64,000 nucleotides of DNA from Escherichia coli (GCF_022846255.1 NZ_AP025682.1); one strand, 5' to 3'. Counted from the stretch's first letter, positions 9,878 through 35,663 are shown. Made by a program: numbers and translations. The notes: generated from the letters alone by a model not told the origin.

Positions 9878-9958
9878 TGGGTTTATCTCTTACAGGATTA
9901 CGTCTTAAACAAGCATGAAAAAATAGCGTGCGCAAATGTCGTTCTTTGCCTAAAATAT

Positions 9959-9982: not shown

Positions 9983-9995
9983 AATGAGGTGAACG

Positions 9996-10283: not shown

Positions 10284-10471
10284 TCAAACATACGTATTAT
10301 CTTGCTTTAATTAATTACACTAATGCTTCTTCCCTTCGTTTTAGTGCCCCGCCGCAGTATCATGATATCGATAACCATAATAAATGTGTGGTAAATGGCG
10401 CATCGATCGCATTATTGATTTTGCGATTGAGGCAAAATATATGCCAGGTCTTCGCAACGGAATAACTATAA

Positions 10472-18220: not shown

Positions 18221-20080
18221 ATGAGCAAAGGAACGACCAGCCAGGATGCCCCGTTCGGGACATTATTGGGCTACGCCCCAGGTGGGGTAGCAATCTACTC
18301 TTCAGATTACAGTTCTCTCGATCCGCAGGAATACGAAGATGACGCCGTATTCCGTAGCTATATCGACGATGAATATATGGGCCACAAATGGCAATGCGTT
18401 GAATTTGCTCGCCGTTTTCTCTTTCTGAACTACGGTGTAGTCTTCACTGACGTGGGTATGGCATGGGAGATTTTCTCACTGCGCTTCCTGCGTGAAGTGG
18501 TCAATGACAACATCCTGCCATTGCAGGCATTTCCTAACGGTTCGCCGCGTGCACCGGTAGCGGGGGCGCTTCTTATCTGGGATAAAGGCGGTGAATTTAA
18601 AGACACTGGCCATGTCGCCATCATTACCCAATTGCATGGCAACAAAGTCCGTATTGCGGAACAGAACGTGATTCATACCCCGTTGCCGCAAGGGCAACAG
18701 TGGACACGCGAGCTGGAGATGGTGGTCGAAAACGGCGGCTATATCCTGAAAGACACCTTCGATGACACCACTATTCTGGGCTGGATGATCCAGACGGAAG
18801 ATACCGAATACAGCTTGCCACAGCCGGAAATTGCAGGCGAACTGCTGAAAATCAGCGGGGCGCGTCTGGAAAACAAAGGCCAGTTTGACGGTAAATGGCT
18901 GGATGAAAAAGATCCGCTGCAAAACGCCTATGTACAGGCCAACGGTCAGGTGATCAATCAGGATCCGTATCATTACTACACCATTACCGAGAGCGCCGAG
19001 CAGGAGCTGATTAAAGCCACCAACGAGCTGCACCTGATGTATCTTCACGCCACCGACAAGGTGCTGAAAGATGACAACCTGCTGGCGTTGTTCGACATTC
19101 CGAAAATCCTCTGGCCACGTTTGCGTCTCTCCTGGCAGCGTCGCCGTCACCATATGATCACCGGTCGTATGGATTTCTGCATGGATGAACGTGGCCTGAA
19201 AGTCTACGAATACAACGCCGATTCTGCCTCCTGTCATACCGAAGCGGGCTTGATCCTCGAACGTTGGGCGGAGCAGGGCTATAAAGGCAACGGCTTCAAT
19301 CCTGCGGAAGGGCTGATTAACGAACTGGCTGGTGCCTGGAAACACAGTCGCGCGCGTCCGTTTGTCCATATCATGCAGGACAAAGATATTGAAGAGAACT
19401 ATCACGCTCAGTTTATGGAGCAGGCGCTGCAACAGGCGGGCTTTGAAACGCGTATCTTGCGCGGGCTAGATGAACTGGGCTGGGATGCTGCCGGGCAACT
19501 GATTGATGGGGAAGGGCGACTGGTTAACTGTGTGTGGAAAACCTGGGCGTGGGAAACCGCGTTTGATCAGATTCGTGAAGTTAGCGACCGTGAGTTTGCT
19601 GCGGTGCCGATCCGTACCGGTCATCCGCAAAATGAAGTGCGTCTTATCGACGTATTGCTGCGCCCGGAAGTGCTGGTCTTTGAGCCGCTGTGGACGGTGA
19701 TCCCCGGCAACAAAGCGATTCTGCCGATCCTCTGGTCGCTGTTCCCGCACCATCGTTACCTGCTGGATACCGATTTCACTGTTAATGATGAACTGGTGAA
19801 AACCGGCTACGCGGTGAAACCAATTGCCGGTCGCTGTGGTAGCAATATCGACCTCGTCAGCCATCATGAAGAGGTGCTCGATCAGACTAGCGGTAAATTT
19901 GCCGAGCAGAAAAACATCTATCAGCAACTGTGGTGTTTGCCGAAAGTGGACGGTAAATACATTCAGGTATGTACTTTCACCGTTGGCGGCAACTACGGTG
20001 GGACGTGTTTGCGCGGTGATGAATCACTGGTCATCAAAAAAGAGAGTGATATTGAACCGTTAATTGTGGTGAAAGAGTAA
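18221..20080 (+). CDS. gss: Bifunctional glutathionylspermidine synthetase/amidase, 619 aa
   Basis: MSKGTTSQDAPFGTLLGYAPGGV N-terminus; N-terminal CHAP amidase and C-terminal ATP-grasp-like region. Confidence 0.93.
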   Translation: MSKGTTSQDAPFGTLLGYAPGGVAIYSSDYSSLDPQEYEDDAVFRSYIDDEYMGHKWQCVEFARRFLFLNYGVVFTDVGMAWEIFSLRFLREVVNDNILPLQAFPNGSPRAPVAGALLIWDKGGEFKDTGHVAIITQLHGNKVRIAEQNVIHTPLPQGQQWTRELEMVVENGGYILKDTFDDTTILGWMIQTEDTEYSLPQPEIAGELLKISGARLENKGQFDGKWLDEKDPLQNAYVQANGQVINQDPYHYYTITESAEQELIKATNELHLMYLHATDKVLKDDNLLALFDIPKILWPRLRLSWQRRRHHMITGRMDFCMDERGLKVYEYNADSASCHTEAGLILERWAEQGYKGNGFNPAEGLINELAGAWKHSRARPFVHIMQDKDIEENYHAQFMEQALQQAGFETRILRGLDELGWDAAGQLIDGEGRLVNCVWKTWAWETAFDQIREVSDREFAAVPIRTGHPQNEVRLIDVLLRPEVLVFEPLWTVIPGNKAILPILWSLFPHHRYLLDTDFTVNDELVKTGYAVKPIAGRCGSNIDLVSHHEEVLDQTSGKFAEQKNIYQQLWCLPKVDGKYIQVCTFTVGGNYGGTCLRGDESLVIKKESDIEPLIVVKE

Positions 20081-20095
20081 TACATGTTGTAGCAA

Positions 20096-20130
20096 CCCCG
20101 TACTGATTATGAAGAATAATCAGTACGGGG
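20096..20130. terminator. Strong hairpin terminator after gss
   Basis: 15-bp perfect stem ccccgtactgattat / ataatcagtacgggg, 5-nt loop. Confidence 0.65.
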
Positions 20131-20371
20131 ATTAATCAAAATATTCAATATTTATATATTTCAATATTTATTCATTTCATATATGAATATATTAACAAGT
20201 GAAATACCTGTGTTTTGATTATTTCTAAAGGTTTTGAATGAAGGCTTATTGTCTGATACACAAGAAATAACACGCTTTTTATCGTTAAAAAATGATATTT
20301 CACTTTGCCCACGCCGTGAAAGTCACTGATAATGCCTCCGTTCGTAAATTCAAAATGGCGTAATCTAATAT

Positions 20372-21871
20372 ATGCTAAATTTATTTGTTGGCCTTGATAT
20401 ATATACGGGGCTTTTGTTATTACTTGCTCTGGCATTTGTGTTGTTCTATGAAGCAATCAATGGTTTTCATGACACGGCGAATGCGGTGGCAACCGTTATT
20501 TATACCCGTGCCATGCAACCACAGCTTGCTGTGGTCATGGCGGCATTTTTTAACTTTTTTGGCGTATTGCTTGGCGGGCTTAGCGTTGCCTATGCCATCG
20601 TCCATATGTTGCCAACCGATTTGTTGCTGAATATGGGGTCAACCCACGGTCTGGCGATGGTCTTTTCCATGCTGCTGGCGGCGATTATCTGGAACCTGGG
20701 AACGTGGTTCTTTGGTTTACCGGCCTCCAGTTCGCACACTTTGATTGGTGCGATTATCGGCATTGGTTTAACCAACGCGCTGTTAAATGGTTCGTCGGTG
20801 ATGGATGCGTTAAACCTGCGCGAAGTCACCAAGATTTTCTCTTCACTCATTGTCTCTCCCATCGTGGGGCTGGTGATTGCGGGGGGGCTAATTTTTCTGC
20901 TACGCCGTTTCTGGAGTGGGACGAAAAAGCGTGACCGTATTCATCGTATTCCTGAAGATCGCAAAAAGAAAAAAGGCAAACGTAAGCCGCCATTCTGGAC
21001 GCGTATTGCCCTCATTGTTTCCGCTGCGGGCGTGGCGTTTTCGCACGGCGCGAACGACGGGCAGAAAGGAATTGGTCTGGTGATGCTGGTGCTGGTGGGG
21101 ATTGCTCCCGCCGGGTTTGTCGTCAATATGAATGCGTCCGGCTATGAAATTACCCGTACCCGCGATGCCGTCACCAACTTCGAACACTACCTGCAACAGC
21201 ATCCTGAACTGCCGCAGAAGTTGATTACGATGGAACCTCCATTGCCTGCGACATCGACTGATGGCACGCAAGTAACAGAGTTTCACTGTCATCCGGCAAA
21301 TACCTTTGATGCGATTGCGCGCGTTAAAACGATGCTGCCAGGCAATATGGAAAGTTACGAGCCGTTAAGCGTGAGTCAGCGCAGCCAGCTGCGCCGCATT
21401 ATGCTGTGCATCTCTGATACCTCCGCGAAGCTGGCGAAACTGCCAGGCGTCAGTAAAGAAGACCAGAACCTGCTGAAAAAACTGCGCAGCGATATGTTAA
21501 GCACCATTGAGTACGCACCGGTATGGATCATCATGGCGGTAGCACTGGCGCTCGGCATCGGCACCATGATTGGCTGGCGTCGTGTAGCGATGACCATCGG
21601 TGAGAAGATTGGTAAGCGCGGCATGACGTATGCGCAAGGCATGGCGGCACAAATGACGGCGGCAGTGTCTATCGGCCTTGCCAGTTATATTGGGATGCCC
21701 GTCTCCACAACACACGTACTCTCGTCTGCAGTAGCAGGGACGATGGTGGTGGACGGCGGTGGGTTACAGCGTAAAACGGTAACCAGCATCCTGATGGCGT
21801 GGGTGTTTACTTTACCGGCGGCGATTTTTCTTTCTGGTGGGTTGTACTGGATAGCATTGCAGTTGATTTAA
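20372..21871 (+). CDS. pitB: Low-affinity inorganic phosphate transporter (PiT family), 499 aa
   Basis: ORF-track protein; polytopic; length and neighbours (gss, yghT) match E. coli pitB. Confidence 0.92.
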
Positions 21872-21880
21872 CCTTCCTGA

Positions 21881-21917
21881 AAATGCCCGGTCCTGGCGAT
21901 CGGGCATTTCCATTTTT
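21881..21917. terminator. Terminator hairpin between convergent pitB and yghT
   Basis: aaatgcccg / cgggcattt stem followed by ccattttt. Confidence 0.55.
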
Positions 21918-21919
21918 CA

Positions 21920-22612
21920 CTAGTGATAACCACGCGCGGTCATAAAATCCGTAATCGCTTTTTCTGCATCAACCAGCACCTTTTCCAGTGGCTGATTGGC
22001 GTCGATATCAACCAGTTGTGCACCACCAAAGGTTAACTGTGGCGTTATGGCAATCTTCCTCGCCAGCGATTCCCGTTTATGGTCGGGTTTACGCGCGCAG
22101 GCAACTTCAAGGTCAACATTGAGTTTGATGACCAGATCGGGCTTGTGGCTCGCCATCCAGTGAAATGCTTTACGTTCCTGACTTGCCAGCCATGAGACAA
22201 AACGACCACCTTCAACGTTAGGCGGAAACACCGTACCATCATAAGCGCCAGGAATCTGGTCCTGCGGATAACGGTCGGTTAAAACAATTAACCCGCGACG
22301 ACGACAGGCAAGCATATGACGAAAGCGCAGTAAGCGACGGGCGACAAACGCTGTAATTACCAGCGCCGGAACTGGTCCAGGCAATTTTTTTGCTGTTTTT
22401 ACCTGATTTCGTTCAATTGTTTTATGTAAGGATTTTCCCATCAACGGTAATTTTGTCACTGCACGACCGACATTTCCGGCCTGTTTTCCTAAATGAACTC
22501 TTTCGGCAGCACCATATTTTTCGACAACGGTAATAAGATGTTCACACACCGTTGACTTGCCTGAACCATCGCTACCAATAACGGCAATTAATGGAGGTAT
22601 TATTGACTGCAT
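21920..22612 (-). CDS. yghT: P-loop NTPase of unknown function (paralogue of yghS/yghR), 230 aa
   Basis: Walker [10 protein letters not shown]; shared TDRYPQ and ARKPDH motifs with yghS and yghR. Confidence 0.85.
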
Positions 22613-22786
22613 GAATATATCCTTAAATTTAAATATCCATCCAAAATATTTATTTGGTTAATATGTTTTTGATGAAAGCGTAATTCAGGTCAATGTCACA
22701 ATTAACCATTGTCACAATAAGGTTGAACGGATATTCTGAGCACGGACCACGTAATATTCAATACATTATTTGCTGCCGGGTTTTTC

Positions 22787-23500
22787 GTGAATCAACGTAA
22801 TATGTCAATAATTAATTCCACGCCAGTGCGTGTTATTGCCATTGTAGGATGTGATGGTTCAGGTAAATCGACCCTCACGGCAAGCCTGGTAAATGAACTG
22901 GCAGCAACAATGCCAACAGAACACATTTATCTCGGGCAATCGTCCGGGCGAATTGGCGAATGGATTTCACAGCTCCCTGTTATTGGCGCACCTTTTGGGC
23001 GTTATCTGCGAAGTAAAGCGGCACATGTGCACGAAAAGCCCTCCACACCACCTGGCAATATTACTGCGCTGGTTATCTATCTGCTTTCCTGCTGGCGGGC
23101 GTACAAGTTTCGCAAAATGTTGTGTAAAAGCCAGCAAGGCTATCTGCTCATCACCGACCGCTACCCGCAGGTTGAAGTGCCGGGTTTTCGCTTTGATGGC
23201 CCGCAATTGGCAAAAACCACGGGCGGTAACGGTTGGATAAAAATGTTAAGGCAGCGCGAGCTGAAGCTGTACCAATGGATGGAGTCTTATTTGCCCGTAT
23301 TGTTGATTCGTCTTGGCATTGATGAACAAACCGCGTTTGCGCGTAAACCTGACCACCAACTGGCGGCGTTACAGGAAAAAATCGCCGTTACGCCGCAACT
23401 GACATTTAATGGCGCAAAGATCCTTGAACTGGATGGTCGGCAACCCGCCGATGAAATTCTGCAAGCGTCACTACGCGCAATTCACGCCGCGCTTTCCTGA
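22787..23500 (+). CDS. yghS: P-loop NTPase of unknown function, 237 aa
   Basis: GTG start; Walker A GCDGSGKST; TDRYPQ and ARKPDH motifs. Confidence 0.85.
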   Translation: MNQRNMSIINSTPVRVIAIVGCDGSGKSTLTASLVNELAATMPTEHIYLGQSSGRIGEWISQLPVIGAPFGRYLRSKAAHVHEKPSTPPGNITALVIYLLSCWRAYKFRKMLCKSQQGYLLITDRYPQVEVPGFRFDGPQLAKTTGGNGWIKMLRQRELKLYQWMESYLPVLLIRLGIDEQTAFARKPDHQLAALQEKIAVTPQLTFNGAKILELDGRQPADEILQASLRAIHAALS

Positions 23501-23531
23501 TCACCAAAATGGATAGGGGATGATTTAACGA

Positions 23532-24290
23532 ATGGACGCACTACAAACACAAACTGTTAATAGTACAACCGCGCCGCAGCCCAACTACATTCCGGGGCTG
23601 ATTGCGGTGGTCGGGTGTGATGGCACCGGTAAATCCACACTGACCACCGACCTGGTGAAATCGCTGCAACAACACTGGCAAACCGAGCGGCGCTATCTGG
23701 GGCTGCTCTCGGGCGAAGACGGCGACAAAATCAAACGATTGCCGTTGGTTGGCGTCTGGCTCGAACGGCGACTGGCGGCCAAATCCTCGAAAACCCAAAG
23801 CATGAAAACCAAATCTCCAGCGCTATGGGCGGCGGTGATTATGTACTGCTTCTCGCTGCGAAGAATGGCGAATCTACGCAAGGTTCAGCGACTGGCGCAA
23901 AGTGGCGTTCTGGTGGTCAGCGATCGCTTCCCGCAGGCTGAAATTTCGGGCTTTTATTATGACGGACCGGGGATCGGCGTCGAACGTGCGACCGGGAAAA
24001 TCAGCATGTTTCTGGCGCAGCGCGAACGGCGTTTATACCAACAAATGGCGCAACACCGTCCTGAATTAATCATTCGTTTGGGGATTGATATTGATACTGC
24101 CATCTCCCGCAAGCCTGACCATGACTATGCCGAGCTGCAGGACAAAATCGGCGTCATGTCGACGATTGGCTATAACGGCACAAAAATTCTTGAGATTGAT
24201 TCCAGAGCGCCCTACAGCGAAGTGCTGGAACAGGCACAGAAGGCGGTTTCTCTGGTTGCCATCGTTTCTGACCGCCGAAGTTTAACTTAA
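23532..24290 (+). CDS. yghR: P-loop NTPase of unknown function, 252 aa
   Basis: Walker A GCDGTGKST; SDRFPQ and SRKPDH motifs. Confidence 0.85.
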   Translation: MDALQTQTVNSTTAPQPNYIPGLIAVVGCDGTGKSTLTTDLVKSLQQHWQTERRYLGLLSGEDGDKIKRLPLVGVWLERRLAAKSSKTQSMKTKSPALWAAVIMYCFSLRRMANLRKVQRLAQSGVLVVSDRFPQAEISGFYYDGPGIGVERATGKISMFLAQRERRLYQQMAQHRPELIIRLGIDIDTAISRKPDHDYAELQDKIGVMSTIGYNGTKILEIDSRAPYSEVLEQAQKAVSLVAIVSDRRSLT

Positions 24291-24335
24291 GGCTGGCGGG
24301 ATACTTTTTACTATCAACGATAAGGTCAGGCTGAA

Positions 24336-25685
24336 TTGGCGGGTTTTAACATCAAACATTGGTTTGCAGATGGCGCGTTTCGCACCATTATTCGCAATAG
24401 CGCCTGGTTAGGCTCCAGTAATGTCGTGAGCGCTTTGCTGGGTCTGTTGGCGCTCTCGTGTGCCGGTAAAGGGATGACGCCCGCCATGTTTGGCGTACTG
24501 GTGATTGTACAATCGTACGCCAAGTCGATCAGCGATTTTATTAAGTTTCAGACATGGCAGCTGGTGGTTCAGTACGGAACACCAGCATTAACCAACAATA
24601 ATCCGCAGCAATTTCGCAATGTCGTCTCATTTTCCTTCTCGCTGGATATCGTCAGCGGCGCGGTGGCGATTGTCGGCGGCATTGCCTTACTCCCTTTTCT
24701 TTCCCATTCATTAGGTCTGGATGACCAAAGCTTTTGGCTGGCAGCGCTGTATTGCACGCTCATTCCTTCAATGGCTTCCTCCACGCCGACCGGCATTCTG
24801 CGTGCGGTAGATCGCTTCGATCTAATTGCTGTACAGCAAGCGACGAAACCTTTTCTGCGCGCAGCGGGGAGCGTCGTTGCCTGGTATTTTGACTTTGGTT
24901 TTGCGGGTTTTGTTATTGCCTGGTACGCCTCGAATCTTGTTGGCGGCACCATGTACTGGTGGTTTGCCGCACGTGAATTACGCCGCAGAAATATCCATAA
25001 CGCGTTCAAATTGAATCTGTTTGAGTCTGCCCGACACATCAAAGGCGCGTGGAGTTTTGTCTGGTCAACCAACATTGCCCATTCCATCTGGTCGGCGCGT
25101 AATTCGTGCAGCACAGTGTTGGTGGGGATCGTGTTAGGACCCGCTGCCGCCGGGTTATTTAAAATCGCCATGACATTCTTCGACGCCGCCGGAACGCCAG
25201 CGGGTTTACTGGGCAAAAGTTTTTACCCAGAGGTGATGCGTTTAGATCCGCGTACCACCAGACCGTGGTTGTTAGGCGTGAAGTCAGGTTTACTGGCGGG
25301 CGGAATCGGTATTCTGGTGGCGCTCGCGGTGTTGATTGTCGGCAAGCCGCTCATTTCGCTGGTGTTTGGCGTTAAGTATCTCGAAGCGTATGACCTGATT
25401 CAGGTGATGCTGGGCGCAATTGTGATCTCGATGCTGGGCTTCCCTCAGGAGTCATTGCTATTGATGGCGGGAAAACAGCGCGCTTTTCTCGTGGCGCAAA
25501 CCATCGCCTCAATCGGCTACATCGTATTGCTGTTCATGTTCTGTCATCTGTTTGGCGTGCTGGGAGCAGCGTTTGCTTATTTCGGCGGTCAATGTCTGGA
25601 TGTGGTGCTTTCGCTAATTCCGACCTTAAAGGCATTTTTTCAGCGCCATTCCTTGCTTTATAACGCAGCCGGAGAGAAATCCTGA
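24336..25685 (+). CDS. yghQ: Polytopic membrane protein, putative MOP-superfamily lipid/polysaccharide flippase; start uncertain (TTG 24336 or ATG 24474/24486)
   Basis: Long hydrophobic ORF with about 10-12 predicted TM segments; stop overlaps next gene start (ATGA). Confidence 0.7.
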   Translation: MAGFNIKHWFADGAFRTIIRNSAWLGSSNVVSALLGLLALSCAGKGMTPAMFGVLVIVQSYAKSISDFIKFQTWQLVVQYGTPALTNNNPQQFRNVVSFSFSLDIVSGAVAIVGGIALLPFLSHSLGLDDQSFWLAALYCTLIPSMASSTPTGILRAVDRFDLIAVQQATKPFLRAAGSVVAWYFDFGFAGFVIAWYASNLVGGTMYWWFAARELRRRNIHNAFKLNLFESARHIKGAWSFVWSTNIAHSIWSARNSCSTVLVGIVLGPAAAGLFKIAMTFFDAAGTPAGLLGKSFYPEVMRLDPRTTRPWLLGVKSGLLAGGIGILVALAVLIVGKPLISLVFGVKYLEAYDLIQVMLGAIVISMLGFPQESLLLMAGKQRAFLVAQTIASIGYIVLLFMFCHLFGVLGAAFAYFGGQCLDVVLSLIPTLKAFFQRHSLLYNAAGEKS

Positions 25686-26521
25686 TGATGAGAAAATATT
25701 TCCCGCTAGAGGCGAGCGAGCGTCTATTTGTTGCGATTGAAGAAGATGATGTCGTTGATGCACAGGTCAGTTTGCCGCCGACTATCGCACTAAGTTGTAC
25801 CACCGAAATCATCCATGATAATTACGCGTTATGCCTGCAATTCTGGCTCAATGGCGTCAATCGCCAGGAGTTACTGCGTTTAATATGCAAACAGGCCAAA
25901 GGCGATGAGCTGACTGCTGATGAGCGCAAACAATTTAAATACATGCGAGCGCGCTACAAGCACCTGCGTTTTGCGCAACGGCTGTATTTAAAGAAGCATC
26001 AGGCCGGATTTTTATTCGGCAAAACGACCGTTTTTTTGGGGCGTTTTCAGGATGGCTTTCGTAACGGTAAGAAAAATATTGTGTCGTTTTACAGTAACCT
26101 GTTACGTGTTTATTTGAGCTCCCCTGTCTGGTGGCTGGTGAACTATTCATTGCGCCATAGCCAGTTAGAAACCGTGAACGGTTTTATCGCCTACCGCCAG
26201 AAGCAAATGTACATCCTGAAAGAGATTATTGCTAAACCGCAACTAACTGGCAGGGAATTTCATGATGTGCGAAAAATCATCAGCCAGCAGGTTTCTTATT
26301 ACGACACCTTAAGATCGCTTGATCCTGAAAATAAAGAGGCGTTACTGATTTCCCGTTTTCTCGCCGCCATTAATGGTCTGATGGGGGATAAGCACGACGA
26401 CATGGTGGCGGATGATATGGAGAACCGCCGGTCATATGATGCACCGGTGGCGCTGGATAGCGATATTCGCCAGCGTTTAGAACTGCTTATTTCGCGTTTC
26501 CCACTCTATCCGGAGCAATAA
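25685..26521 (+). CDS. Hypothetical cytoplasmic protein, 278 aa, no family recognised
   Basis: ORF with GGAGAGA RBS 8 nt upstream; translationally coupled to yghQ and the next ORF. Confidence 0.65.
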   Translation: MMRKYFPLEASERLFVAIEEDDVVDAQVSLPPTIALSCTTEIIHDNYALCLQFWLNGVNRQELLRLICKQAKGDELTADERKQFKYMRARYKHLRFAQRLYLKKHQAGFLFGKTTVFLGRFQDGFRNGKKNIVSFYSNLLRVYLSSPVWWLVNYSLRHSQLETVNGFIAYRQKQMYILKEIIAKPQLTGREFHDVRKIISQQVSYYDTLRSLDPENKEALLISRFLAAINGLMGDKHDDMVADDMENRRSYDAPVALDSDIRQRLELLISRFPLYPEQ

Positions 26522-27081
26522 TGCCATCTCGTTGGATTTTCGCTCTGATCATCGCACTCTTAGCGCCAGGCGCGGCGGCACACAATTTCGTCACTGGCAA
26601 AACGGTTACCCCTGTTTATATCCAGGAAGGCGGCGAGCTGCTTCTGAATAGCGACGACGAAATTCACTACCAAAAGTGGAACAGCACACAATTGACGGGA
26701 AAAGTTCGCATTATTCAGTACATCGCCGGGCGTAAGTCGGCGAAGAAAAAGAACTCACTGTTAATTAAAGCGGTTGAAGCGGCAAACTTTCCGCAGGATC
26801 GTTTTCAGCCCACCACCATTGTGAACACTGATGATGCCATCTTTGGTACCGGCTATTTTGTCGTTGGCAAAATCGAAAAAAATAAACGCCGCTATCCGTG
26901 GGCGCAATTCGTTATTGACGGCAATGGACAGGGACGCGTTGCCTGGCACTTGCAGGAGCAGAGTTCAACCATTCTGGTGCTGAATAAAACCGGGCAAATT
27001 CAGTGGGCAAAGGACGGCAGCCTGACGCCGGAAGAGGTAGATCATGTCATTGCGCTGGCGCAGAAGCTGATCAATGAATAA
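26521..27081 (+). CDS. Hypothetical exported protein with N-terminal signal peptide, 186 aa
   Basis: N-terminus MPSRWIFALIIALLAPGAAAHNF resembles a Sec signal; ATG overlaps preceding stop (TAATG). Confidence 0.65.
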   Translation: MPSRWIFALIIALLAPGAAAHNFVTGKTVTPVYIQEGGELLLNSDDEIHYQKWNSTQLTGKVRIIQYIAGRKSAKKKNSLLIKAVEAANFPQDRFQPTTIVNTDDAIFGTGYFVVGKIEKNKRRYPWAQFVIDGNGQGRVAWHLQEQSSTILVLNKTGQIQWAKDGSLTPEEVDHVIALAQKLINE

Positions 27082-27110
27082 AAATTCAAAGGATTGAGGG
27101 CGTTAGTGAG

Positions 27111-28181
27111 ATGAAGCTGGTTGAACACTACATCATGCGTGGTACGCGCCGTCTGGTGCTGATTATCGTCGGTTTTCTGATCTTTATTTTCGCCAGCTAC
27201 TCCGCACAGCGTTATCTGACCGAAGCGGCAAATGGGACATTAGCTCTTGATGTTGTGCTGGATATCGTTTTCTACAAAGTGCTGATTGCACTGGAGATGT
27301 TGTTACCTGTTGGACTGTATGTGTCAGTTGGCGTGACGCTAGGGCAGATGTATACCGACTCGGAAATTACCGCTATCTCTGCGGCGGGGGGCAGTCCGGG
27401 ACGCTTGTACAAAGCCGTTCTTTATCTGGCGATACCGCTAAGTATTTTTGTCACCCTTCTGTCGATGTATGGTCGTCCGTGGGCTTATGCGCAGATTTAT
27501 CAACTGGAGCAACAGTCACAGTCGGAGCTGGATGTTCGCCAGTTGCGGGCAAAGAAATTTAACACTAACGATAACGGACGAATGATCCTTTCGCAGACGG
27601 TTGATCAGGATAATAATCGCCTGACTGACGCGCTGATTTATACTTCTACTGCTAATCGAACCCGCATTTTCCGCGCCCGTTCGGTTGATGTGGTTGACCC
27701 ATCACCTGAGAAACCGACCGTTATGTTGCATAACGGGACCGCCTATCTTCTCGATCATCAGGGGCGTGACGACAACGAACAGATCTACCGTAATCTGCAA
27801 TTACATCTGAATCCGCTGGATCAAAGCCCTAACGTCAAACGCAAAGCAAAATCGGTCACGGAGCTGGCGCGCTCCGCCTTTCCTGCCGATCATGCCGAAC
27901 TGCAATGGCGACAAAGCCGTGGCCTGACAGCATTGTTGATGGCGCTGCTGGCCATTTCATTAAGTCGGGTAAAACCGCGGCAAGGGCGATTTTCAACGTT
28001 ATTGCCACTGACGTTGCTGTTTGTTGCCATTTTTTATGGCGGCGACGTCTGCCGTACGCTGGTGGCTAACGGCGCGATTCCCCTCATTCCTGGTTTGTGG
28101 TTAGTACCCGGACTCATGCTAATGGGCCTGCTGATGTTGGTCGCACGCGACTTCTCTTTGCTGCAGAAATTTTCCCGATGA
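27111..28181 (+). CDS. LptF/LptG-family (YjgP/YjgQ) permease-like membrane protein, 356 aa
   Basis: 3 TM + about 150-aa hydrophilic domain + 3 TM topology read from translation; N-terminus resembles LptF. Confidence 0.7.
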   Translation: MKLVEHYIMRGTRRLVLIIVGFLIFIFASYSAQRYLTEAANGTLALDVVLDIVFYKVLIALEMLLPVGLYVSVGVTLGQMYTDSEITAISAAGGSPGRLYKAVLYLAIPLSIFVTLLSMYGRPWAYAQIYQLEQQSQSELDVRQLRAKKFNTNDNGRMILSQTVDQDNNRLTDALIYTSTANRTRIFRARSVDVVDPSPEKPTVMLHNGTAYLLDHQGRDDNEQIYRNLQLHLNPLDQSPNVKRKAKSVTELARSAFPADHAELQWRQSRGLTALLMALLAISLSRVKPRQGRFSTLLPLTLLFVAIFYGGDVCRTLVANGAIPLIPGLWLVPGLMLMGLLMLVARDFSLLQKFSR

Positions 28182-29257
28182 ATGTTTTCAGTCGCTATTT
28201 AATCCGTCATCTCTTTCTCGGTTTTGCCGCCGCCGCAGGGCTATTGCTGCCGCTTTTTACCACCTTCAACCTGATTAACGAACTGGATGATGTCAGCCCG
28301 GGTGGTTATCGCTGGACTCAGGCGGTGCTGGTGGTGCTGATGACCTTACCGCGCACACTGGTCGAACTTTCGCCGTTTATCGCCTTATTGGGAGGGATTG
28401 TCGGCCTGGGGCAGTTATCGAAAAACAGTGAGCTTACCGCCATTCGCAGCACGGGGTTTTCTATCTTCCGTATTGCACTGGTGGCGCTGGTTGCCGGGAT
28501 ATTGTGGACTGTTTCATTAGGCGCGATAGATGAGTGGGTGGCGTCGCCATTGCAGCAACAGGCGCTGCAAATCAAATCGACTGCCACCGCGTTGGGGGAG
28601 GACAATGACATTATCGGCAATATGCTTTGGGCCAGGCGCGGTAATGAATTTGTGACGGTGAAATCGCTGAACGAGCAGGGCCAGCCGGTGGGCGTGGAGA
28701 TTTTTCATTACCGCGACGATCTCTCGCTCGAATCCTACATTTATGCGCGCAGTGCCACCATTGAAGACGATAAAACGTGGATCCTGCATGGTGTGAATTA
28801 TAAAAAATGGTTGAATGGCAAAGAAACGCTGGAAACATTAGATAATCTTGCCTGGCAATCGGCCTTCACCAGTATGAATCTTGAAGAGTTATCGATGCCG
28901 GGGAATACTTTTTCTGTCCGTCAGCTTAATCATTACATCCATTATTTGCAGGATACCGGGCAACCCAGCAGCGAATACCACCTTGCACTGTGGGAAAAAC
29001 TGGGGCAACCGATCTTGACTCTGGCGATGATTTTGCTGGCTGTGCCGTTTACCTTTAGTGTCCCGCGCTCGCCAGGGATGGGTAGCCGTCTCGCTGTAGG
29101 CGTCATCGTTGGTTTACTCACCTGGATCAGCTATCAAATCATGGTCAATCTGGGATTGCTATTTGCGTTGAGCGCACCTGTTACCGCGCTCGGTTTACCG
29201 GTAGCGTTTGTGCTGGTGGCGTTGAGCCTGGTGTATTGGTATGACAGACAACATTAA
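28178..29257 (+). CDS. LptF/LptG-family (YjgP/YjgQ) permease-like membrane protein, 359 aa
   Basis: ORF-track 386 aa trimmed to MNVFSRYLIRHLF; ATG overlaps upstream stop (ATGA); same 3+3 TM topology. Confidence 0.7.
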   Translation: MNVFSRYLIRHLFLGFAAAAGLLLPLFTTFNLINELDDVSPGGYRWTQAVLVVLMTLPRTLVELSPFIALLGGIVGLGQLSKNSELTAIRSTGFSIFRIALVALVAGILWTVSLGAIDEWVASPLQQQALQIKSTATALGEDNDIIGNMLWARRGNEFVTVKSLNEQGQPVGVEIFHYRDDLSLESYIYARSATIEDDKTWILHGVNYKKWLNGKETLETLDNLAWQSAFTSMNLEELSMPGNTFSVRQLNHYIHYLQDTGQPSSEYHLALWEKLGQPILTLAMILLAVPFTFSVPRSPGMGSRLAVGVIVGLLTWISYQIMVNLGLLFALSAPVTALGLPVAFVLVALSLVYWYDRQH

Positions 29258-29288
29258 ACCCGCCGTGGCGCAACACCACGGCGGGTTC
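29257..29288. terminator. Bidirectional terminator hairpin between convergent permease and lipid operons
   Basis: 12-bp perfect stem aacccgccgtgg / ccacggcgggtt with 8-nt loop. Confidence 0.55.
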
Positions 29289-29291
29289 ACA

Positions 29292-30464
29292 TTACTGCTT
29301 CTGAGTAGCAAATGCCTGAATGATGGCATCGATTTGCTCACGACTGTGGGCAGCGTTTACGCTACAGCGCAGCAGCGTGATGCCAGCAGGCGCGGCAGGT
29401 GGCAGGATAAGATTCACATAAACGCCCAGCGAAATAAGCTCGCGCCAGATGCGTAAACCTTCCTCTTTCGAACCGATTATTACTGGCACTACCGGGCTAA
29501 TATGTGAACTTAACTCGTAACCCAGTTTTTGCAGACCGTCATACAGATGGTTGGCGTTATCCATCAGCTTTTGCCGCAGCTCTGGTTGTGAGGCAATGGT
29601 TCTTAACGACGAGCGCACGGTCGCAATGCAGGACGGAGAAGGAGAGGCGGTAAAAATATACGGGCGGCTGCCGTAGCGCAGCACTTCCATCGCTTCCGAA
29701 CCGACAGCAAAACCGCCAATCGAGGCCAGACTTTTACTGAAGGTGCCGACGATAATATCCACGTCGTCTTCAACGCCAACGGCTTCAACCAGTCCGCGCC
29801 CCGTAGCGCCTAACACGCCAAACGAATGTGCTTCATCGACAATCAAATAACCACCGAGACGACGTTTGATATCAACAATTTCTGCCAGCGGCGCAACGTC
29901 ACCGAGCATACTGTAGATGCCTTCAACGATAATAATCGCCTCTTTCGCCCGTTCACCGAGGCGGACCATGCGCCGTTCCAGATCGTTGACGTCATTATGG
30001 CGGAAACGAATAATCTCCGCGCCGCCGAGAGAACAGGCGTCATAAATACTGGCGTGGCTGTCGGCATCCAGTAACACCACGGCGTTATGGTCGGCAAGTG
30101 CGCTGATGACACCTAAATTAGCGGTATAACCGGTTGAAAAAACGATAGCGGTAGGGCGATTGAAAAACTCGGCAATCTCTTTCTCTAACGCCAGATGCGG
30201 CGCATAACTGCCGTTTGCCATACGAGAACCGGTGGTGCCGGTGCCTTGGGCCGCTAACGCTGCCTGACCTTCGCGGATAGCATCATGATTAAAGGTTAAA
30301 CCGAGATAATTATTGGTCCCGGCCAGAATCACTTTTTTATTGCCGATCCGGCCTTCGGTGGCGGAATATACTTCATCAATACAGGTGCCAAATGGTGTTA
30401 ACCCGTTGTCACTAAATTGCAGGCGCTCGCCAGCAAGGCGCGCATATTTATCGTATAGCCCCAT
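29292..30464 (-). CDS. PLP-dependent alpha-oxoamine synthase family acyltransferase (serine palmitoyltransferase / 8-amino-7-oxononanoate synthase-like), 390 aa
   Basis: PLP-lysine motif GTFSKSLAS and DEAHSFG; class-II aminotransferase fold inferred from translation. Confidence 0.8.
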   Translation of the reverse strand: MGLYDKYARLAGERLQFSDNGLTPFGTCIDEVYSATEGRIGNKKVILAGTNNYLGLTFNHDAIREGQAALAAQGTGTTGSRMANGSYAPHLALEKEIAEFFNRPTAIVFSTGYTANLGVISALADHNAVVLLDADSHASIYDACSLGGAEIIRFRHNDVNDLERRMVRLGERAKEAIIIVEGIYSMLGDVAPLAEIVDIKRRLGGYLIVDEAHSFGVLGATGRGLVEAVGVEDDVDIIVGTFSKSLASIGGFAVGSEAMEVLRYGSRPYIFTASPSPSCIATVRSSLRTIASQPELRQKLMDNANHLYDGLQKLGYELSSHISPVVPVIIGSKEEGLRIWRELISLGVYVNLILPPAAPAGITLLRCSVNAAHSREQIDAIIQAFATQKQ

Positions 30465-30712
30465 TATTTATTCTCCAGCCATGGAAGTAGAGTTTCCATT
30501 AATTGCGCAGGGGTTTTGACATCCAGCAGAATATTAATAGGAATGGAAATATCGAATCTGTCTTCCAGCATCATTAAGAGATCCATCACTTTGATCGACT
30601 CCAGGCCAAGATCGTTGACGAGATCGCTGTCGGGCTTAATTTCCACACCGTTTTCGACCAAATCCTGTAAACAGGAAAGGATGTAATCCATTACTATTTC
30701 ACGATTTACCAT
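30464..30712 (-). CDS. Acyl carrier protein, 82 aa
   Basis: Phosphopantetheine-attachment motif DLGLESIKVMDL; small acidic protein; stop overlaps next start. Confidence 0.8.
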   Translation of the reverse strand: MVNREIVMDYILSCLQDLVENGVEIKPDSDLVNDLGLESIKVMDLLMMLEDRFDISIPINILLDVKTPAQLMETLLPWLENK

Positions 30713-30743
30713 AGAAACGTTAACACACCTTTAAACAAGACAA

Positions 30744-31658
30744 TCAAAATAGCCCGTTGCGTAATGCGTGTTCCAGGCTAATCCCGGGAAACCAATTAAT
30801 ATCTTCAGAAATACGGTTATTACTTGCCGACCAGTCGGCATGAGTTAATTCACGGATTTTCGAACGAGTCAGCATCGGTTCTTTACCCGCCAGACGGCTC
30901 AACGCGGTACTGATATCCGCAAGGCAGGTGAGTAGCGGCAGAGGAATACCGACCATCCGCACGGAACCACAGCGGACATCGGCAACAAGCTGTTGGACAC
31001 GTTGCCAGTCATAGCCTCCGGCGACGCCATCGCATAATTCATAGGTTTGCGTCTGTACAGTTTCGGCGCTTAACCACTGACCCACTGCTTGCGCAAAATC
31101 GGTGACGTGAAGAAAAGAGAGCAGTGTCTCTGGCGTGCCAAGTCGTGGCAGCAGACCGCGCAGCATCCAGTCAAACAGCGGTTTTAACTCTTTATCGCCG
31201 GGACCATACACGGCTGTCGGGCGAAAAACGCCCAACGTAATTTCGTCAGCCATTGCAGTCAGCCGTTGTTCGGCGACGTGTTTGGAATTTGCGTACCAGG
31301 AGAGTTCGGGATGGCGCGCCGCCAGCGAAGAGATAAACAGAAAACGTTGGCAAAAGCCGCTCTCTTTTGCCGCTTGCATCAGGCGCAGGCTGCCGTCAAC
31401 GTTGCAGCGGGTAAAAATCTCTTCTTTGTGCCCGCGCACTTGCCCGGCGCAATGGACCACCGCGCTGGCTCCGGCAACCAGTTCGCTAAGCGAATGTGTA
31501 TCTTCCAGCGAACCGCGCACCCAAGTGAGATTATCATTGACGTGAGCGCGGGCAGTACGCGTCAATGCGCGAACGTGAAAGCCGCGGGCGAGCAGGTTAT
31601 CAATAATATATTTACCGATAAACCCGGTAGCGCCCGTCACCGCGACAGTTTGATTCAT
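30744..31658 (-). CDS. NAD(P)-dependent epimerase/dehydratase-family reductase (extended SDR), 304 aa
   Basis: ORF-track 374 aa trimmed to MNQTVAVTGATGFIGKY (Rossmann GxxGxxG); ATG overlaps upstream stop (ATGA). Confidence 0.78.
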   Translation of the reverse strand: MNQTVAVTGATGFIGKYIIDNLLARGFHVRALTRTARAHVNDNLTWVRGSLEDTHSLSELVAGASAVVHCAGQVRGHKEEIFTRCNVDGSLRLMQAAKESGFCQRFLFISSLAARHPELSWYANSKHVAEQRLTAMADEITLGVFRPTAVYGPGDKELKPLFDWMLRGLLPRLGTPETLLSFLHVTDFAQAVGQWLSAETVQTQTYELCDGVAGGYDWQRVQQLVADVRCGSVRMVGIPLPLLTCLADISTALSRLAGKEPMLTRSKIRELTHADWSASNNRISEDINWFPGISLEHALRNGLF

Positions 31659-33379
31659 GCCAGGGATTCCTGCACATGAAGACTGGCAGCATAAGCCTTC
31701 TGATAACGTTTTTTCGCTTCCGCACGGGCAGGCTTGCCGGAGGATGTTCGGGGAATACTGTGGGGCGGCAACAGATCGATATCCGCGGTAACGCCAAATT
31801 CGCTTTGGATCCGAGCTGCCAGCGCGTGGATAAGCTGCCCGCGACGTTCTTCGTCGCTGATCCGACACTGGATCTGCAAAATGATTTTTTCCTGGGCGGT
31901 AACAAAAGCAATCGCATCGCCAGAATGAATTTCCGGCTCCTGTTCCGCAATGTATTCAATATCCTGCGGCCAGATATTACGGCCACGAATAATAATCAGA
32001 TCTTTAATGCGTCCGGTGACATACAGATAACCGTCCAGCAGATAACCAAGGTCTCCGGTGTCTAACCAGCCCGTCGCGGCAATCTCGTCTTGCGAAACCT
32101 GGTCGCCAAAGTACCCGCTCATCAGGCTGGGGCCGGAGATGCAAATATGGCCTACCACACGTTCCGCGACAGGTATATCTGCTTCATTGCGGATTTCAAT
32201 GCCATGTTCCGGCAACGCTTTACCGCAGTTGACGAAAGTCGATACGGCGCGTGTTTCAGCACCCGGCGCGACGGCTTTACCCTGGTATTCGAGGATGTCG
32301 CGATCCACTTCGTTAACCACAACCCCGCAGGCTTCATCAGAGAAGCTGACAGCCAGCGCATTTTCTGCCAGTCCGTAGCACGGCATGAAAGTTTTATCGT
32401 CAAAGTTAACCTGACGGAAACATTCAGCGAATTGATGGAGTTGTTCTGCGGATATGGGTTCTGCGCCAATACCAGCGACGCGCCAGCAGGAAAGATCCAG
32501 TTCAGCGAGATCTTTTTCATTCACGCGGCGCTGGCACAATTCATAGCCAAACGGCGGTGCAACGGAAACGGTGCCACGATTTTTACTGATCAATTTAAGC
32601 CATTGCAGAGGACGCATGGCAAAATCCTGAGTGCGCAAATAATCTACTGAAAGCTGCGTGGCGACGGGGGTCAGGAGAAAGCCGACCAGTCCCATATCAT
32701 GGTAGAAAGGCAGCCAGGAGACGCAGCGGTCGCCAGGGCGTAATTTAATCCCATCGTGGCTTATAGCACGTAGATTAGCCATCACTTCGTGATGGGTGAT
32801 AATGACGCCACGGGGAAAACGGGTGCTGCCGGAGGTGTACTGGAGGTAGGCGATATCGTTTGGAACTGGACGCTGGAGCACAACATCGGCTTCCGGTAAT
32901 GCCTTAAACCAGGCGTGGCTTAAAACATGTAATTCGGGGTTGTTGTTATGCGTCGCGGCATTGACCAGTGGCAACCACTCATCACCAGTGATAATGGCTG
33001 CGGGCTGGCAACTTGCCAGTAAACCCTGCAGTTTGGCGCTCCAGGAATCCCGCTGACCTACGCCCATTGGAATCGCCAACGGGACGGCGACTAAGCCGGC
33101 ATACTGGCAGGCAAAAAAAGCCTCTACAAACCCGCTACTCGTTTCGGCAATCAGCGCCACGCGATCGCCTTTTTTCAGGTTCAGCGATAACAACCTTTTC
33201 GCACCAGCTTCGGCACGCGCTTTTAACGTCTGATATTCCAGTTGATCTTCAAGTTGGCAACGTCTGTCATAAAAATTCATTCCGGCGCTACTCAGAGCGG
33301 CGTAGTCCAAAGCATCAACCAGCGTTGGAAAATCGGCATAGCGCATAGGTAGGGAATGCGTAAAGATTTTATTAGACAT
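31655..33379 (-). CDS. Fatty-acyl-AMP ligase / acyl-ACP synthetase-like adenylating enzyme, about 574 aa
   Basis: AMP-binding motifs YTSGSTRFPRG and GRIKDLIIIRGRNIWPQDIE; start set at ATG 33379 (alternative TTG 33406). Confidence 0.8.
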   Translation of the reverse strand: MSNKIFTHSLPMRYADFPTLVDALDYAALSSAGMNFYDRRCQLEDQLEYQTLKARAEAGAKRLLSLNLKKGDRVALIAETSSGFVEAFFACQYAGLVAVPLAIPMGVGQRDSWSAKLQGLLASCQPAAIITGDEWLPLVNAATHNNNPELHVLSHAWFKALPEADVVLQRPVPNDIAYLQYTSGSTRFPRGVIITHHEVMANLRAISHDGIKLRPGDRCVSWLPFYHDMGLVGFLLTPVATQLSVDYLRTQDFAMRPLQWLKLISKNRGTVSVAPPFGYELCQRRVNEKDLAELDLSCWRVAGIGAEPISAEQLHQFAECFRQVNFDDKTFMPCYGLAENALAVSFSDEACGVVVNEVDRDILEYQGKAVAPGAETRAVSTFVNCGKALPEHGIEIRNEADIPVAERVVGHICISGPSLMSGYFGDQVSQDEIAATGWLDTGDLGYLLDGYLYVTGRIKDLIIIRGRNIWPQDIEYIAEQEPEIHSGDAIAFVTAQEKIILQIQCRISDEERRGQLIHALAARIQSEFGVTADIDLLPPHSIPRTSSGKPARAEAKKRYQKAYAASLHVQESLA

Positions 33380-33749
33380 ATACACCACGAAAAAATTGGA
33401 TATCAAAAATAAAATGACAATAATGCGGTGGATTATATAGGCATAAAAGATAAATGAGATAGTATTTTCATCGGTGTGAAAATGAACATTGATTTAAATA
33501 ATAAGTTTGGCTTTTTTGTTTTTATTGTGAATGATATTTAATTTGTGAATATATTAAGAAGGAGCCTTGTCCGGTCGCCTTAAATCGACAAGAGGCATTG
33601 TGGCGCTTCTGTGTAGTCTTTGACCTTATCGTAATCATTAATAAATACTATTTATTCTTTGTTTGTATTCATTGGGTTGATTATTAAGATGCCGTTCGTT
33701 GCTGTTGCAACCTGTTTTTCACCGTTAATTATTTGTTATCCACAGAGAT

Positions 33750-34892: not shown

Positions 34893-34898
34893 TGGCAG

Positions 34899-35663
34899 TC
34901 ACCCCTGCTTCATCTCCAGCGGCACCGCCGAGCGAATCAAATGGTGGCCTTCCAGCTCGATATCGTGGAGATTCTTTTTCACGGTCCGCACATGATCGCG
35001 TGCTGCGCGCTGGGCAACGTGCGGCAGCCGCTGCAACACCGCGTTGTAGATCCGCGCATGCTGGCGATCGATCTGCTTTTTTTGCTGTGGTCGATGGTAG
35101 AGATTATTTACGCTGGCAAACACCGAATTAAACATCAGGTCGGTCAATGATTGCAGCGTAAACACCAGCACCTGATTGTGAGAAGCCTGACAAATGGCGA
35201 GATGGAAAGCGTGATCCAACTGCGCATGTTCGATCAGCGAAATCTCTTTGTTGTTCTCACTGACGGCGAGCATTTTTTCATAACAGCGGGTTATCACAAC
35301 AAAATCAGCCTGGGTTCCCAGCGTTGCCGCCAGCCTTGCCGATTCGCCCTCCAGTAATGCGCGAACGTCGAGCAGATCGTACAACGTTCGCGGCTGCGTA
35401 CTGAACAGATGGATCAGCGGGCTGGTGTCCTGCACCCGATTAAGCCGTGCGACACGAGAATCGCGACCCTGCGCCGTTTCAATAATCCCGCGCCCGCGCA
35501 GCACGGTCAGCCCTTCACGCAGTGCGGAGCGTGAGAAGCCGAGCTTTTCACACAGTCGACGTTCCGAGGGAAGCGGCTGACCGACCTTCAGTACGCCGTC
35601 GATAATTAACCGTTCGATACTTTCTGCAACCACTTCGCAAATAGGGCGACGTTCATCTTTCAT
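34899..35663 (-). CDS. glcC: GntR/FadR-family transcriptional activator of the glycolate operon, 254 aa
   Basis: ORF-track 274 aa trimmed to MKDERRPICEVV; N-terminal winged HTH; divergent from glcD. Confidence 0.92.
   Translation of the reverse strand: MKDERRPICEVVAESIERLIIDGVLKVGQPLPSERRLCEKLGFSRSALREGLTVLRGRGIIETAQGRDSRVARLNRVQDTSPLIHLFSTQPRTLYDLLDVRALLEGESARLAATLGTQADFVVITRCYEKMLAVSENNKEISLIEHAQLDHAFHLAICQASHNQVLVFTLQSLTDLMFNSVFASVNNLYHRPQQKKQIDRQHARIYNAVLQRLPHVAQRAARDHVRTVKKNLHDIELEGHHLIRSAVPLEMKQG

Follow-up and report, generated by a model that had tools for sequence, protein, structure and literature searches.

The closest described counterpart of the locus reported here is the sphingolipid locus of Caulobacter crescentus (CC_1152-CC_1168), which encodes Spt, AcpR, AasR, CerR and bCerS, the transport proteins LptF2, LptG2 and LptC2, and a putative flippase, CC_1166. 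Its head-group genes encode CpgB, a ceramide kinase of the diacylglycerol kinase (DAGK)-like type, and phosphoglycerate transferases. In Caulobacter the LptF2-LptG2 complex binds the housekeeping LptB, lptF2 and lptG2 can be deleted only if spt is deleted, LptC2 is restricted to Caulobacter, and the periplasmic components are stated to be unknown (bioRxiv 10.64898/2026.04.12.717747). The Geiger group has proposed LptC2, LptF2 and LptG2 together with the flippase CC_1166 as a transport system (PMC11324152). By which route bacterial sphingolipids cross the inner membrane and reach the outer membrane is a question that the recent literature describes as open. Here we analysed a stretch of 64,000 nucleotides (nt) from Escherichia coli (GCF_022846255.1 NZ_AP025682.1), referred to as the window, with a focus on positions 24336-27081, which carry yghQ and two genes for proteins of 278 and 186 amino acids (aa).

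The synthesis genes of the corresponding E. coli locus have been assigned before. For E. coli B/BL21, a role in dihydroceramide synthesis was assigned to yghO (as 'aca'), aasR, epi, acpR and spt (ECD_02850-02854); Spt, AasR and AcpR of E. coli B were assayed and found to be active, and only in vitro or heterologous activities were reported (PMC9386255). The sphingolipid locus of E. coli UTI89 with LptF2/G2 has been drawn beside the Caulobacter and Sphingomonas loci, and lptF2 of our window corresponds to the LptF2 of these loci (bioRxiv 10.64898/2026.04.12.717747). The wider setting, a sphingolipid locus of E. coli that includes LptF2G2, is known from published work. The Caulobacter and Escherichia loci both hold the same five genes for ceramide synthesis, an additional LptF/LptG pair and a putative flippase gene, and in both of them LptF2G2 comes without an LptB of its own. 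Instead of the Caulobacter head-group genes, the Escherichia-type locus carries three thymidylate-kinase-like paralogs (YghT, YghS and YghR), a CHAD-like protein and YtfJ2, and it has no LptC2.

The segment under study belongs to the Escherichia sphingolipid locus, of which it forms the arm for transport and late steps. This arm is convergent to aasR-cerR-acpR-spt, with yghO beyond. A preliminary description of the window had missed this defining context, although spt, acpR, cerR, aasR and yghO as neighbours identify a sphingolipid locus. We consider it probable, with considerable room for doubt, that yghS to lptG2 form one transcription unit within this arm and serve an export order of kinase-like proteins, CHAD-like protein, flippase and LptF2G2. 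The kinase-flippase-CHAD module and its association with YtfJ2 are described in no paper found in the literature searched, and we regard the module as moderately novel.

Gene order and coupling from yghS to lptG2

Seven genes follow each other on the plus strand with gaps of 31, 45, -1, -1, 29 and -4 nt. The likely first gene of the unit is yghS (22787-23500), which encodes a thymidylate-kinase-like P-loop protein. It is followed by its paralog yghR (23532-24290), by yghQ (24336-25685), which is full length with 449 aa and a TTG start, by the gene of the 278-aa protein (25685-26521), by ytfJ2 (26521-27081), and by the permease genes lptF2 (27111-28181) and lptG2 (28178-29257). The overlapping stop and start codons reported in the preliminary description are real in the window sequence. 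At 25685 (TGATG), the yghQ TGA and the ATG of the 278-aa open reading frame (ORF) share one base; at 26521 (TAATG), one base is common to the TAA of the 278-aa ORF and the ATG of the 186-aa ORF; and at 28178 (ATGA), the lptF2 TGA overlaps the lptG2 ATG by 4 nt. The 186-aa ORF and lptF2 are separated by 29 nt. GGAG-type Shine-Dalgarno sequences precede the starts of the 278-aa and 186-aa ORFs, and none was seen upstream of the lptG2 start. Overlapping codons are frequent in bacterial operons, so the overlaps are unremarkable in themselves, and the operon as such is an ordinary feature.

To compare the junctions across species, we used a locus scan with one genome per species (GTDB), in which 13 window proteins were mapped by tblastn onto 63 loci; the query was an alignment of close orthologs, and the 63 loci are biased toward closer relatives. 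The yghQ stop overlaps the start of the CHAD-like gene in 43 of 58 pairs (median -4 nt), and lptF2 overlaps lptG2 in all 47 pairs. The third overlap, from the 278-aa ORF to ytfJ2, is present in no more than 3 of 49 pairs (median gap +38 nt) and does not bear the weight that had been placed on all three. In most E. coli the 278-aa ORF has 274 aa and is followed by an 11-nt gap to ytfJ2. Loss of this stop codon extends the ORF in the window and creates the overlap at 26521, a lineage variant that is also present in the B2-like E. coli strain A0 34/86.

Independent promoters or terminators between the genes were looked for in sequence scans. There were 14 promoter-like matches compared to 14.8 ± 4.4 in shuffled sequence, i.e. 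no excess, and no convincing internal terminator was found. Upstream, yghS is separated from the divergent yghT (21920-22612, minus strand), a P-loop, thymidylate-kinase-like paralog, by an AT-rich spacer (22613-22786, GC 0.41). A consensus scan placed a candidate sigma-70 promoter there on the plus strand (22709-22737, TTGTCA-17-TATTCT, 9 of 12 positions). A genomic-SELEX (systematic evolution of ligands by exponential enrichment) peak of FlhDC has been reported in the yghT/yghS intergenic region of K-12 (PMC9962212), and no regulator gene is encoded near the locus in E. coli. Downstream, the short gap between the convergent lptG2 and spt holds a GC-rich hairpin (29258-29289) with a 12-bp stem in the RNA fold (-24.1 kcal/mol, z -5.0 compared to shuffles); the terminator scan gave 16 pairs at 29255-29289. 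It lies directly after lptG2 and is the only strong terminator-like element. No clear U-tract was seen on either side. The hairpin is likely a bidirectional terminator. An Rfam scan of 20000-35500 revealed no RNA family.

The sequence features suggest that yghS-yghR-yghQ-CHAD-like-ytfJ2-lptF2-lptG2 is most likely one transcription unit that reaches from the yghT/yghS spacer to the hairpin at 29258-29289. The claim of a single co-expressed unit, extended upstream to yghS, is partly supported by gaps of at most 45 nt, by the lack of a promoter excess, by the single hairpin at the end and by the conservation of two of the three overlaps. It does not hold for an obligatory unit, since the block is split in other genera. 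The units that are conserved despite this splitting are yghS-yghR, yghQ-CHAD(-ytfJ2) and lptF2-lptG2.

Conservation of the kinase-flippase-CHAD core

The CHAD-like gene lies directly 3′ of yghQ on the same strand in 56 of the 63 loci, and three of the seven exceptions are at contig ends. At least two YghR/S/T paralogs were found in 54 loci, and yghT is located together with the module in 53. The synthesis genes spt, acpR, cerR and aasR are present in 48-49 of the 63 loci, with spt within 10 kb in 49, while lptF2 and lptG2 were found in 45-47 and ytfJ2 in 48, all of the latter in Enterobacterales.

The order of these genes varies. In Serratia, Pantoea and Klebsiella indica, the synthesis genes lie upstream. 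In Sodalis, Rosenbergiella and Rahnella, lptF2G2 and yghSR are inverted, and the core of kinase, yghQ and CHAD-like gene is kept in Sodalis and Rosenbergiella. The Rhodanobacteraceae Luteibacter, Rhodanobacter and Dyella carry the string yghS-yghR-aasR-cerR-acpR-spt-yghQ-CHAD, with no ytfJ2 or lptF2G2 nearby. Only kinase-kinase-yghQ-CHAD was found in Novosphingobium, Altericroceibacterium and a Sphingomonas metagenome-assembled genome. Because it is kept across these varied gene orders, the kinase-like proteins, YghQ and the CHAD-like protein appear as the invariant core of the locus. This core occurs with spt nearby or in classical sphingolipid producers. Sphingomonadales have sphingolipids in place of lipopolysaccharide (LPS).

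In Novosphingobium barchaimii (L071 4869-10849), two kinase-like genes (7116-7889 and 7930-8646), a YghQ-like gene (8643-9995) and a CHAD-like gene (9992-10849) follow each other, with 4-nt overlaps. This module adjoins divergent genes for a PmrA/QseB-like response regulator and a PmrB/QseC-like histidine kinase, and these neighbours hint at control by envelope stress.

In the window, all 13 locus genes are intact. The ratio of nonsynonymous to synonymous substitution rates (dN/dS), determined against E. whittamii, was 0.08 for the 278-aa ORF and 0.11 for the 186-aa ORF, and it ranged from 0.03 to 0.14 across all locus genes tested, which indicates purifying selection.

The 278-aa protein as a divergent CHAD protein

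The 278-aa protein, whose gene is translationally coupled to yghQ, had been described as cytoplasmic and without a recognisable family. The first statement agrees with our results, as it has no signal peptide or transmembrane segment and is modelled as an all-helical soluble protein. The second is correct insofar as there is no Pfam or NCBIfam match, but remote homology and the structure model point to a divergent CHAD domain. At 90% identity its homologs form 341 clusters, a few of which are labelled 'CHAD domain-containing' by UniRef; at 50% identity there are 312, and 93 of these have E-values below 1e-30. Among 42 diverse relatives, Pfam CHAD (PF05235) matches 3 at E<=1e-3 and 12 at E<=0.1. 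A profile built from close orthologs retrieved nothing relevant from the PDB sequences; only the broader 42-sequence alignment reached CHAD, with the CHAD domain 6qv5 as top match among 177,635 PDB sequences (E 1.8e-4).

The structure model, obtained from 22 sequences, has a predicted local distance difference test (pLDDT) score of 92, a predicted template modelling (pTM) score of 0.89 and eleven helices, and it shows the all-alpha fold of two four-helix bundles that characterises CHAD domains. Across the 42 diverse members, R88, R95, D123, H193 and R196 are invariant, and H105, K197, H237 and D238 are nearly so. The family motifs align with HqmRvgvRrLR, aHrtRiatkR and LGrhnD of 6qv5, with the first His replaced by Lys. 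The isoelectric point (pI) of the protein is 9.1. On the basis of the transitive Pfam matches, the profile match to 6qv5, the motif alignment and the invariant residues, we file the 278-aa ORF as a putative divergent CHAD-fold protein below the Pfam threshold.

Known CHAD proteins include those of Ricinus communis (6qv5), Streptomyces (PptA, 6rn5) and Chlorobium (CT1733-type, 3e0s/6qv7) and the C-terminal domain of E. coli YgiF (5a60/5a61). Compared to these, the 278-aa protein is set apart by its sub-threshold Pfam score and the His-to-Lys replacement in the first motif. Its gene context also differs, as it occurs in sphingolipid loci together with P-loop kinases and a MOP flippase and not with CYTH, PPK or polyphosphate (polyP)-granule genes. 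No paper that treats 'CHAD domain' and sphingolipid together was found in the literature searched.

The 186-aa protein YtfJ2

For the 186-aa protein, the preliminary description had proposed a signal peptide and no recognisable family. The signal peptide is a classic one (MPSR, a hydrophobic core and an AAA-HNF junction), and both the peptide and the A-x-A/HNF junction are conserved in the orthologs. The protein is nevertheless a clear member of the YtfJ family and is already so named by RefSeq. It reaches 213.8 bits with TIGR01626 (YtfJ_HI0045), compared to a cut-off of 151.1, over residues 1-184 of 186, and its orthologs carry PF09695. Within the YtfJ/HI0045 family it stands out as a paralog specific to this locus, seen only in the sphingolipid loci of Enterobacterales, and we refer to it as YtfJ2. 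No solved structure of a YtfJ family protein was found by sequence.

YtfJ2 has the thioredoxin-like fold of TlpA/DsbE/ResA- and peroxiredoxin-type proteins. It differs from these in that the mature protein contains no cysteine, so that neither a catalytic CxxC nor a peroxidatic Cys is present. A conserved AGRxSAKKKN motif at the start of the first helix appears to occupy the position of the CxxC of the redox relatives, as judged by the pattern of secondary structure and not by superposing residues. The absence of cysteine makes thiol-disulfide and peroxidase chemistry impossible, and from its sequence YtfJ2 is predicted to be a redox-dead, basic (pI 9.1), periplasmic thioredoxin-fold protein. 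A role of YtfJ2 as supplier of reductant to a periplasmic CerR was considered and rejected for the same reason. In Erwinia endophytica (L020), ytfJ2 is frameshifted.

YghQ, the kinase-like paralogs and LptF2G2

YghQ, a candidate flippase of the Wzx/MurJ type, matches the NF007773 'MOP flippase family' model with E 1.4e-8 over residues 18-435, but with only 34 bits compared to a cut-off of 273. Its orthologs carry Pfam Polysacc_synt (PF01943) or Polysacc_synt_3 (PF13440). It seems likely from these matches that YghQ belongs to the MOP flippase superfamily, and they point to no specific subfamily. To our knowledge, the known MOP flippase relatives of YghQ all flip pyrophosphate-linked lipids.

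YghT, YghS and YghR are paralogs with 33-39% identity that share a Walker A motif (GxDGxGKST), a DR(Y/F)PQ motif and a lid-like ARKPDH motif. With a YghR/S/T profile, the top PDB matches were thymidylate kinases (E 2e-5), with an alignment that spans the P-loop, DRY and lid. Thymidylate-kinase-fold kinases typically phosphorylate a hydroxyl group or an existing phosphate. Scores with the dTMP kinase model TIGR00041 were 24.5, 30.6 and 25.4 bits for the three proteins (about 25 for YghT), far below the cut-off of 83.25. The RefSeq name 'dTMP kinase' for YghS and YghT is therefore an over-annotation that reflects likeness in fold and motifs only. The low scores and a hydrophobic insert distinguish the three proteins from thymidylate and nucleoside monophosphate-kinase-fold kinases, with which they share the motifs. 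This insert (ALVIYxFS..), conserved between Walker A and DRY in YghR/S/T, might be a membrane-association element. Homology to the Caulobacter ceramide kinase CpgB was rejected, as CpgB is DAGK-like with a GGDG motif. A reading as PPK2-type polyphosphate kinases is not supported, since no PPK2 match was seen in Pfam or among the PDB matches, but it stays conceivable at the level of the fold. Among the papers found, the literature on yghQ, yghR, yghS and yghT consists of K-12 knockout and single-nucleotide polymorphism data only.

The LptF-type permease paralog LptF2 scores 319.8 bits with TIGR04407 (cut-off 230), and the LptG-type paralog LptG2 298.8 bits with TIGR04408 (cut-off 240). As in the LptB2FG(C) LPS extractor, there are two permease genes of the LptF/LptG type with the same lengths and the typical stop/start overlap. 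Unlike that system, lptF2 and lptG2 are sphingolipid-locus paralogs with no lptB, lptC or lptA nearby, and their presumed substrate is a sphingolipid. It is the gene context that argues for this assignment of LptF2 and LptG2.

Synthesis genes and distribution of the locus in E. coli

Beyond the hairpin, the minus strand carries spt (29292-30464), a serine palmitoyltransferase gene by its match to NF047599 (597 bits compared to a cut-off of 500), and acpR (30464-30712), which encodes a specialised acyl carrier protein (PMC9386255). It is followed by cerR/epi (30744-31658), a reductase gene of the NAD-dependent epimerase/dehydratase family (RefSeq name; PMC9386255), and aasR (31655-33406), which encodes an intact fatty acyl-AMP ligase / acyl-ACP synthetase (NF006624, 868 bits compared to 600). 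On the plus strand, yghO (33750-34892; RefSeq 'protein YghO') is an intact ORF for an N-acyltransferase homologous to the Caulobacter ceramide synthase CC_1154. The window thus unites spt, acpR, aasR, cerR/epi and an N-acyltransferase gene, the combination that defines a sphingolipid cluster of the rhodobacterial type. The ORF of cerR can be extended mechanically to a GTG at 31868 (30744-31868, 374 aa), overlapping aasR, while the RefSeq ATG gives 304 aa. No signal peptide is seen at the N-terminus of the cerR product; for Caulobacter CerR, a periplasmic location has been reported.

The same order is found in RefSeq for other E. coli strains: gss, pitB and yghT, then yghS, yghR, a 'lipopolysaccharide biosynthesis protein' (full-length YghQ), a hypothetical protein, a YtfJ family protein, lptF and lptG. 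Beyond lptG follow spt, an acyl carrier protein, an NAD-dependent epimerase/dehydratase and a fatty acyl-AMP ligase, and then yghO and glcC. The window's copy of gss has 100% identity to that of several E. coli strains, among them A0 34/86. Of 5426 complete E. coli genomes, 4091 matched at least 80% of the 4.9-kb yghQ-lptG2 block (24336-29257), 542 matched it in part, and 793 gave no match. The names 'dTMP kinase', 'LPS export permease LptF/LptG' and 'lipopolysaccharide biosynthesis protein' are, in our reading, mis-annotations, and they mask a sphingolipid pathway in about three quarters of the complete E. coli genomes. The aasR gene of E. coli A0 34/86 (L006 30439-32130) has an internal stop and carries a pseudogene annotation.

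A proposed export route

The locus offers candidates for steps of sphingolipid export. YghQ is a candidate for the flippase, the CHAD-like partner and the three kinase-like proteins for a head-group machinery, and YtfJ2 for a periplasmic factor in a locus without LptC2. We know of no described head group on gamma-proteobacterial sphingolipids. The route that we propose begins with steps shown in vitro for the enzymes of E. coli B, in which AasR loads AcpR and Spt condenses acyl-AcpR with serine to 3-oxo-sphinganine. The ceramide would then be completed by YghO and CerR, as their homology to the Caulobacter proteins suggests. YghT, YghS and YghR may phosphorylate the head group, and the invariant Arg/His/Lys cluster of the CHAD-like protein might serve to bind the resulting anionic group or else polyphosphate as a donor. 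Together with the MOP flippase YghQ, the CHAD-like protein could move the lipid to the periplasmic leaflet, from where LptF2G2, powered by the housekeeping LptB, would extract it toward the outer membrane in analogy to Caulobacter LptF2G2. YtfJ2, as an Enterobacterales-specific addition, probably handles or binds the anionic head group in the periplasm without redox chemistry. With such a route, the CHAD domain, which has so far been connected with polyphosphate, would also occur in a setting of lipid export, and the orphan YtfJ family would gain its first functional neighbourhood.

A more far-reaching version is that the core of kinase-like proteins, YghQ and CHAD-like protein makes and flips a ceramide with a pyro- or oligophosphate head group, an undescribed lipid class. 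The CHAD protein would then be the first with a lipid-linked phosphate chain as ligand, or the first to feed polyphosphate to lipid kinases, and YtfJ2 and LptF2G2 would supply the last part of a sphingolipid-specific path to the outer membrane, in E. coli as in many other Proteobacteria. As a whole we consider this version speculative and rather improbable.

Several observations weigh against the proposed route. YghR/S/T could be ATPases rather than kinases, and no CpgB homolog was found in the E. coli locus. The ligand of the CHAD-like protein and a phosphorylated ceramide as product are pure inference, and we know of no CHAD domain that binds a lipid head group. The CHAD assignment itself has to accommodate that Pfam and NCBIfam gave nothing above threshold for the 278-aa protein and 21 close orthologs, that Foldseek E-values to CHAD structures were weak, and that no signal was obtained when the family profile was aligned with the single YgiF sequence by hhalign; since YgiF has a divergent CHAD domain too, this last comparison is uninformative. 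The lptF2G2 pair is divergent from yghQ in other genera. The locus is also dispensable, as roughly one in four complete E. coli genomes lacks it or has it truncated, and some strains carry pseudogenes in it. Neither a description of an E. coli sphingolipid product nor transcript, protein or lipid data for the locus genes were found in the literature searched. In the available part of a silkworm-killing screen, the K-12 knockouts of yghQ, yghR, yghS and yghT have values of 80-100 compared to 0 for mlaA, in a column whose meaning is not given there.

Alternative explanations

One alternative accepts the genes as neighbours and denies the operon: yghQ-CHAD-ytfJ2 and lptF2-lptG2 would be driven by internal promoters, and the overlaps would reflect genome compaction. 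The 278-aa, 186-aa and lptF2 genes each have their own Shine-Dalgarno sequence, and weak promoter-like matches lie at 26412 and 27559-27617, although such matches do not exceed those in shuffled sequence. Across the loci, the gap from yghR to yghQ extends up to 431 nt (median 98) and that from the CHAD-like gene to ytfJ2 is usually 16-50 nt, while the gaps in the window are all 45 nt or less. Relative to yghQ-CHAD, lptF2G2 and yghSR are found on the other strand or at another place in Sodalis, Rosenbergiella, Rahnella and some Erwinia. In K-12, yghQ is truncated, so that an operon call made there is uninformative. Such a call exists in the FlhDC SELEX study, where the operon column lists only 'yghSR' (PMC9962212). 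With no convincing internal terminator and the only strong hairpin located after lptG2, we consider separate promoters unlikely, though they deserve to be kept in mind. It is less likely still that the E. coli locus is a silent or decaying remnant whose coupling has no present function. This would fit the 542 partial and 793 missing blocks, the aasR pseudogene of A0 34/86 and the ytfJ2 frameshift of Erwinia endophytica. It would also fit the knockouts that are unremarkable in the portion of the silkworm screen at hand, a 2-fold shift in the minimum inhibitory concentration of chlorhexidine as the only change reported for a yghQ deletion, which also counts against the proposed route, and the lack of a known E. 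coli sphingolipid in the literature searched. A remnant would, on the other hand, not be expected to keep 13 intact genes under strong purifying selection and to be conserved across many Enterobacterales genera, or to encode Spt, AasR and AcpR that are active in E. coli B (PMC9386255).

The database names suggest a second export system for LPS, O-antigen or capsule that is unrelated to the neighbouring spt genes. RefSeq uses 'lipopolysaccharide biosynthesis protein' and 'LPS export ABC transporter permease LptF/LptG', LptF2 and LptG2 score higher than the curated cut-offs of the LptF and LptG equivalog models, and the Wzx/MurJ-type MOP superfamily has undecaprenyl-pyrophosphate-linked glycans as known substrates. 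This explanation is very unlikely in view of the spt, acpR, cerR and aasR genes that stay within 10 kb in 49 of the 63 loci despite several gene orders, and of a block without glycosyltransferase, polymerase or ligase genes. The essential lptFG of E. coli are moreover encoded elsewhere in the genome. The core module is also found in Sphingomonadales, which lack LPS (as stated for Sphingomonas), and Caulobacter LptF2/G2 are genetically tied to sphingolipid synthesis (bioRxiv 10.64898/2026.04.12.717747). Finally, the two middle genes might be hitch-hikers in the locus, the 278-aa protein being an ordinary CHAD protein of polyP granules or polyP metabolism and the 186-aa protein a generic periplasmic stress protein. 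Adjacency to yghQ with a conserved overlap is, however, kept in 56 of the 63 loci across four orders of Proteobacteria, pitB lies outside the conserved neighbourhood, and ytfJ2 stays after the CHAD-like gene even where lptF2G2 has moved. We give hitch-hiking hardly any credence.

CHAD-like relatives outside the module

Distant members of the 278-aa family occur in other contexts. Two proteins of about 980 aa (P0234 and P0237) carry two CHAD-like repeats together with a signal peptide and an APH/choline-kinase-like phosphotransferase domain. As judged from its domains, this APH/choline-kinase-CHAD fusion in an unrelated lineage is a second, independent kinase-CHAD association. P0122, another distant member, consists of a tandem duplication. 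A single domain with a signal peptide or lipobox makes up each of P0184, P0217 and P0264, so that some distant relatives are probably exported. Orphan second CHAD-like copies without yghQ were found in Pluralibacter (L025 5946-10804 and L033) and in Carnimonas (L062), and the orphan copy of Pluralibacter gergoviae lies near genes for an OlsC/LpxO-like lipid hydroxylase and a BCCT transporter.

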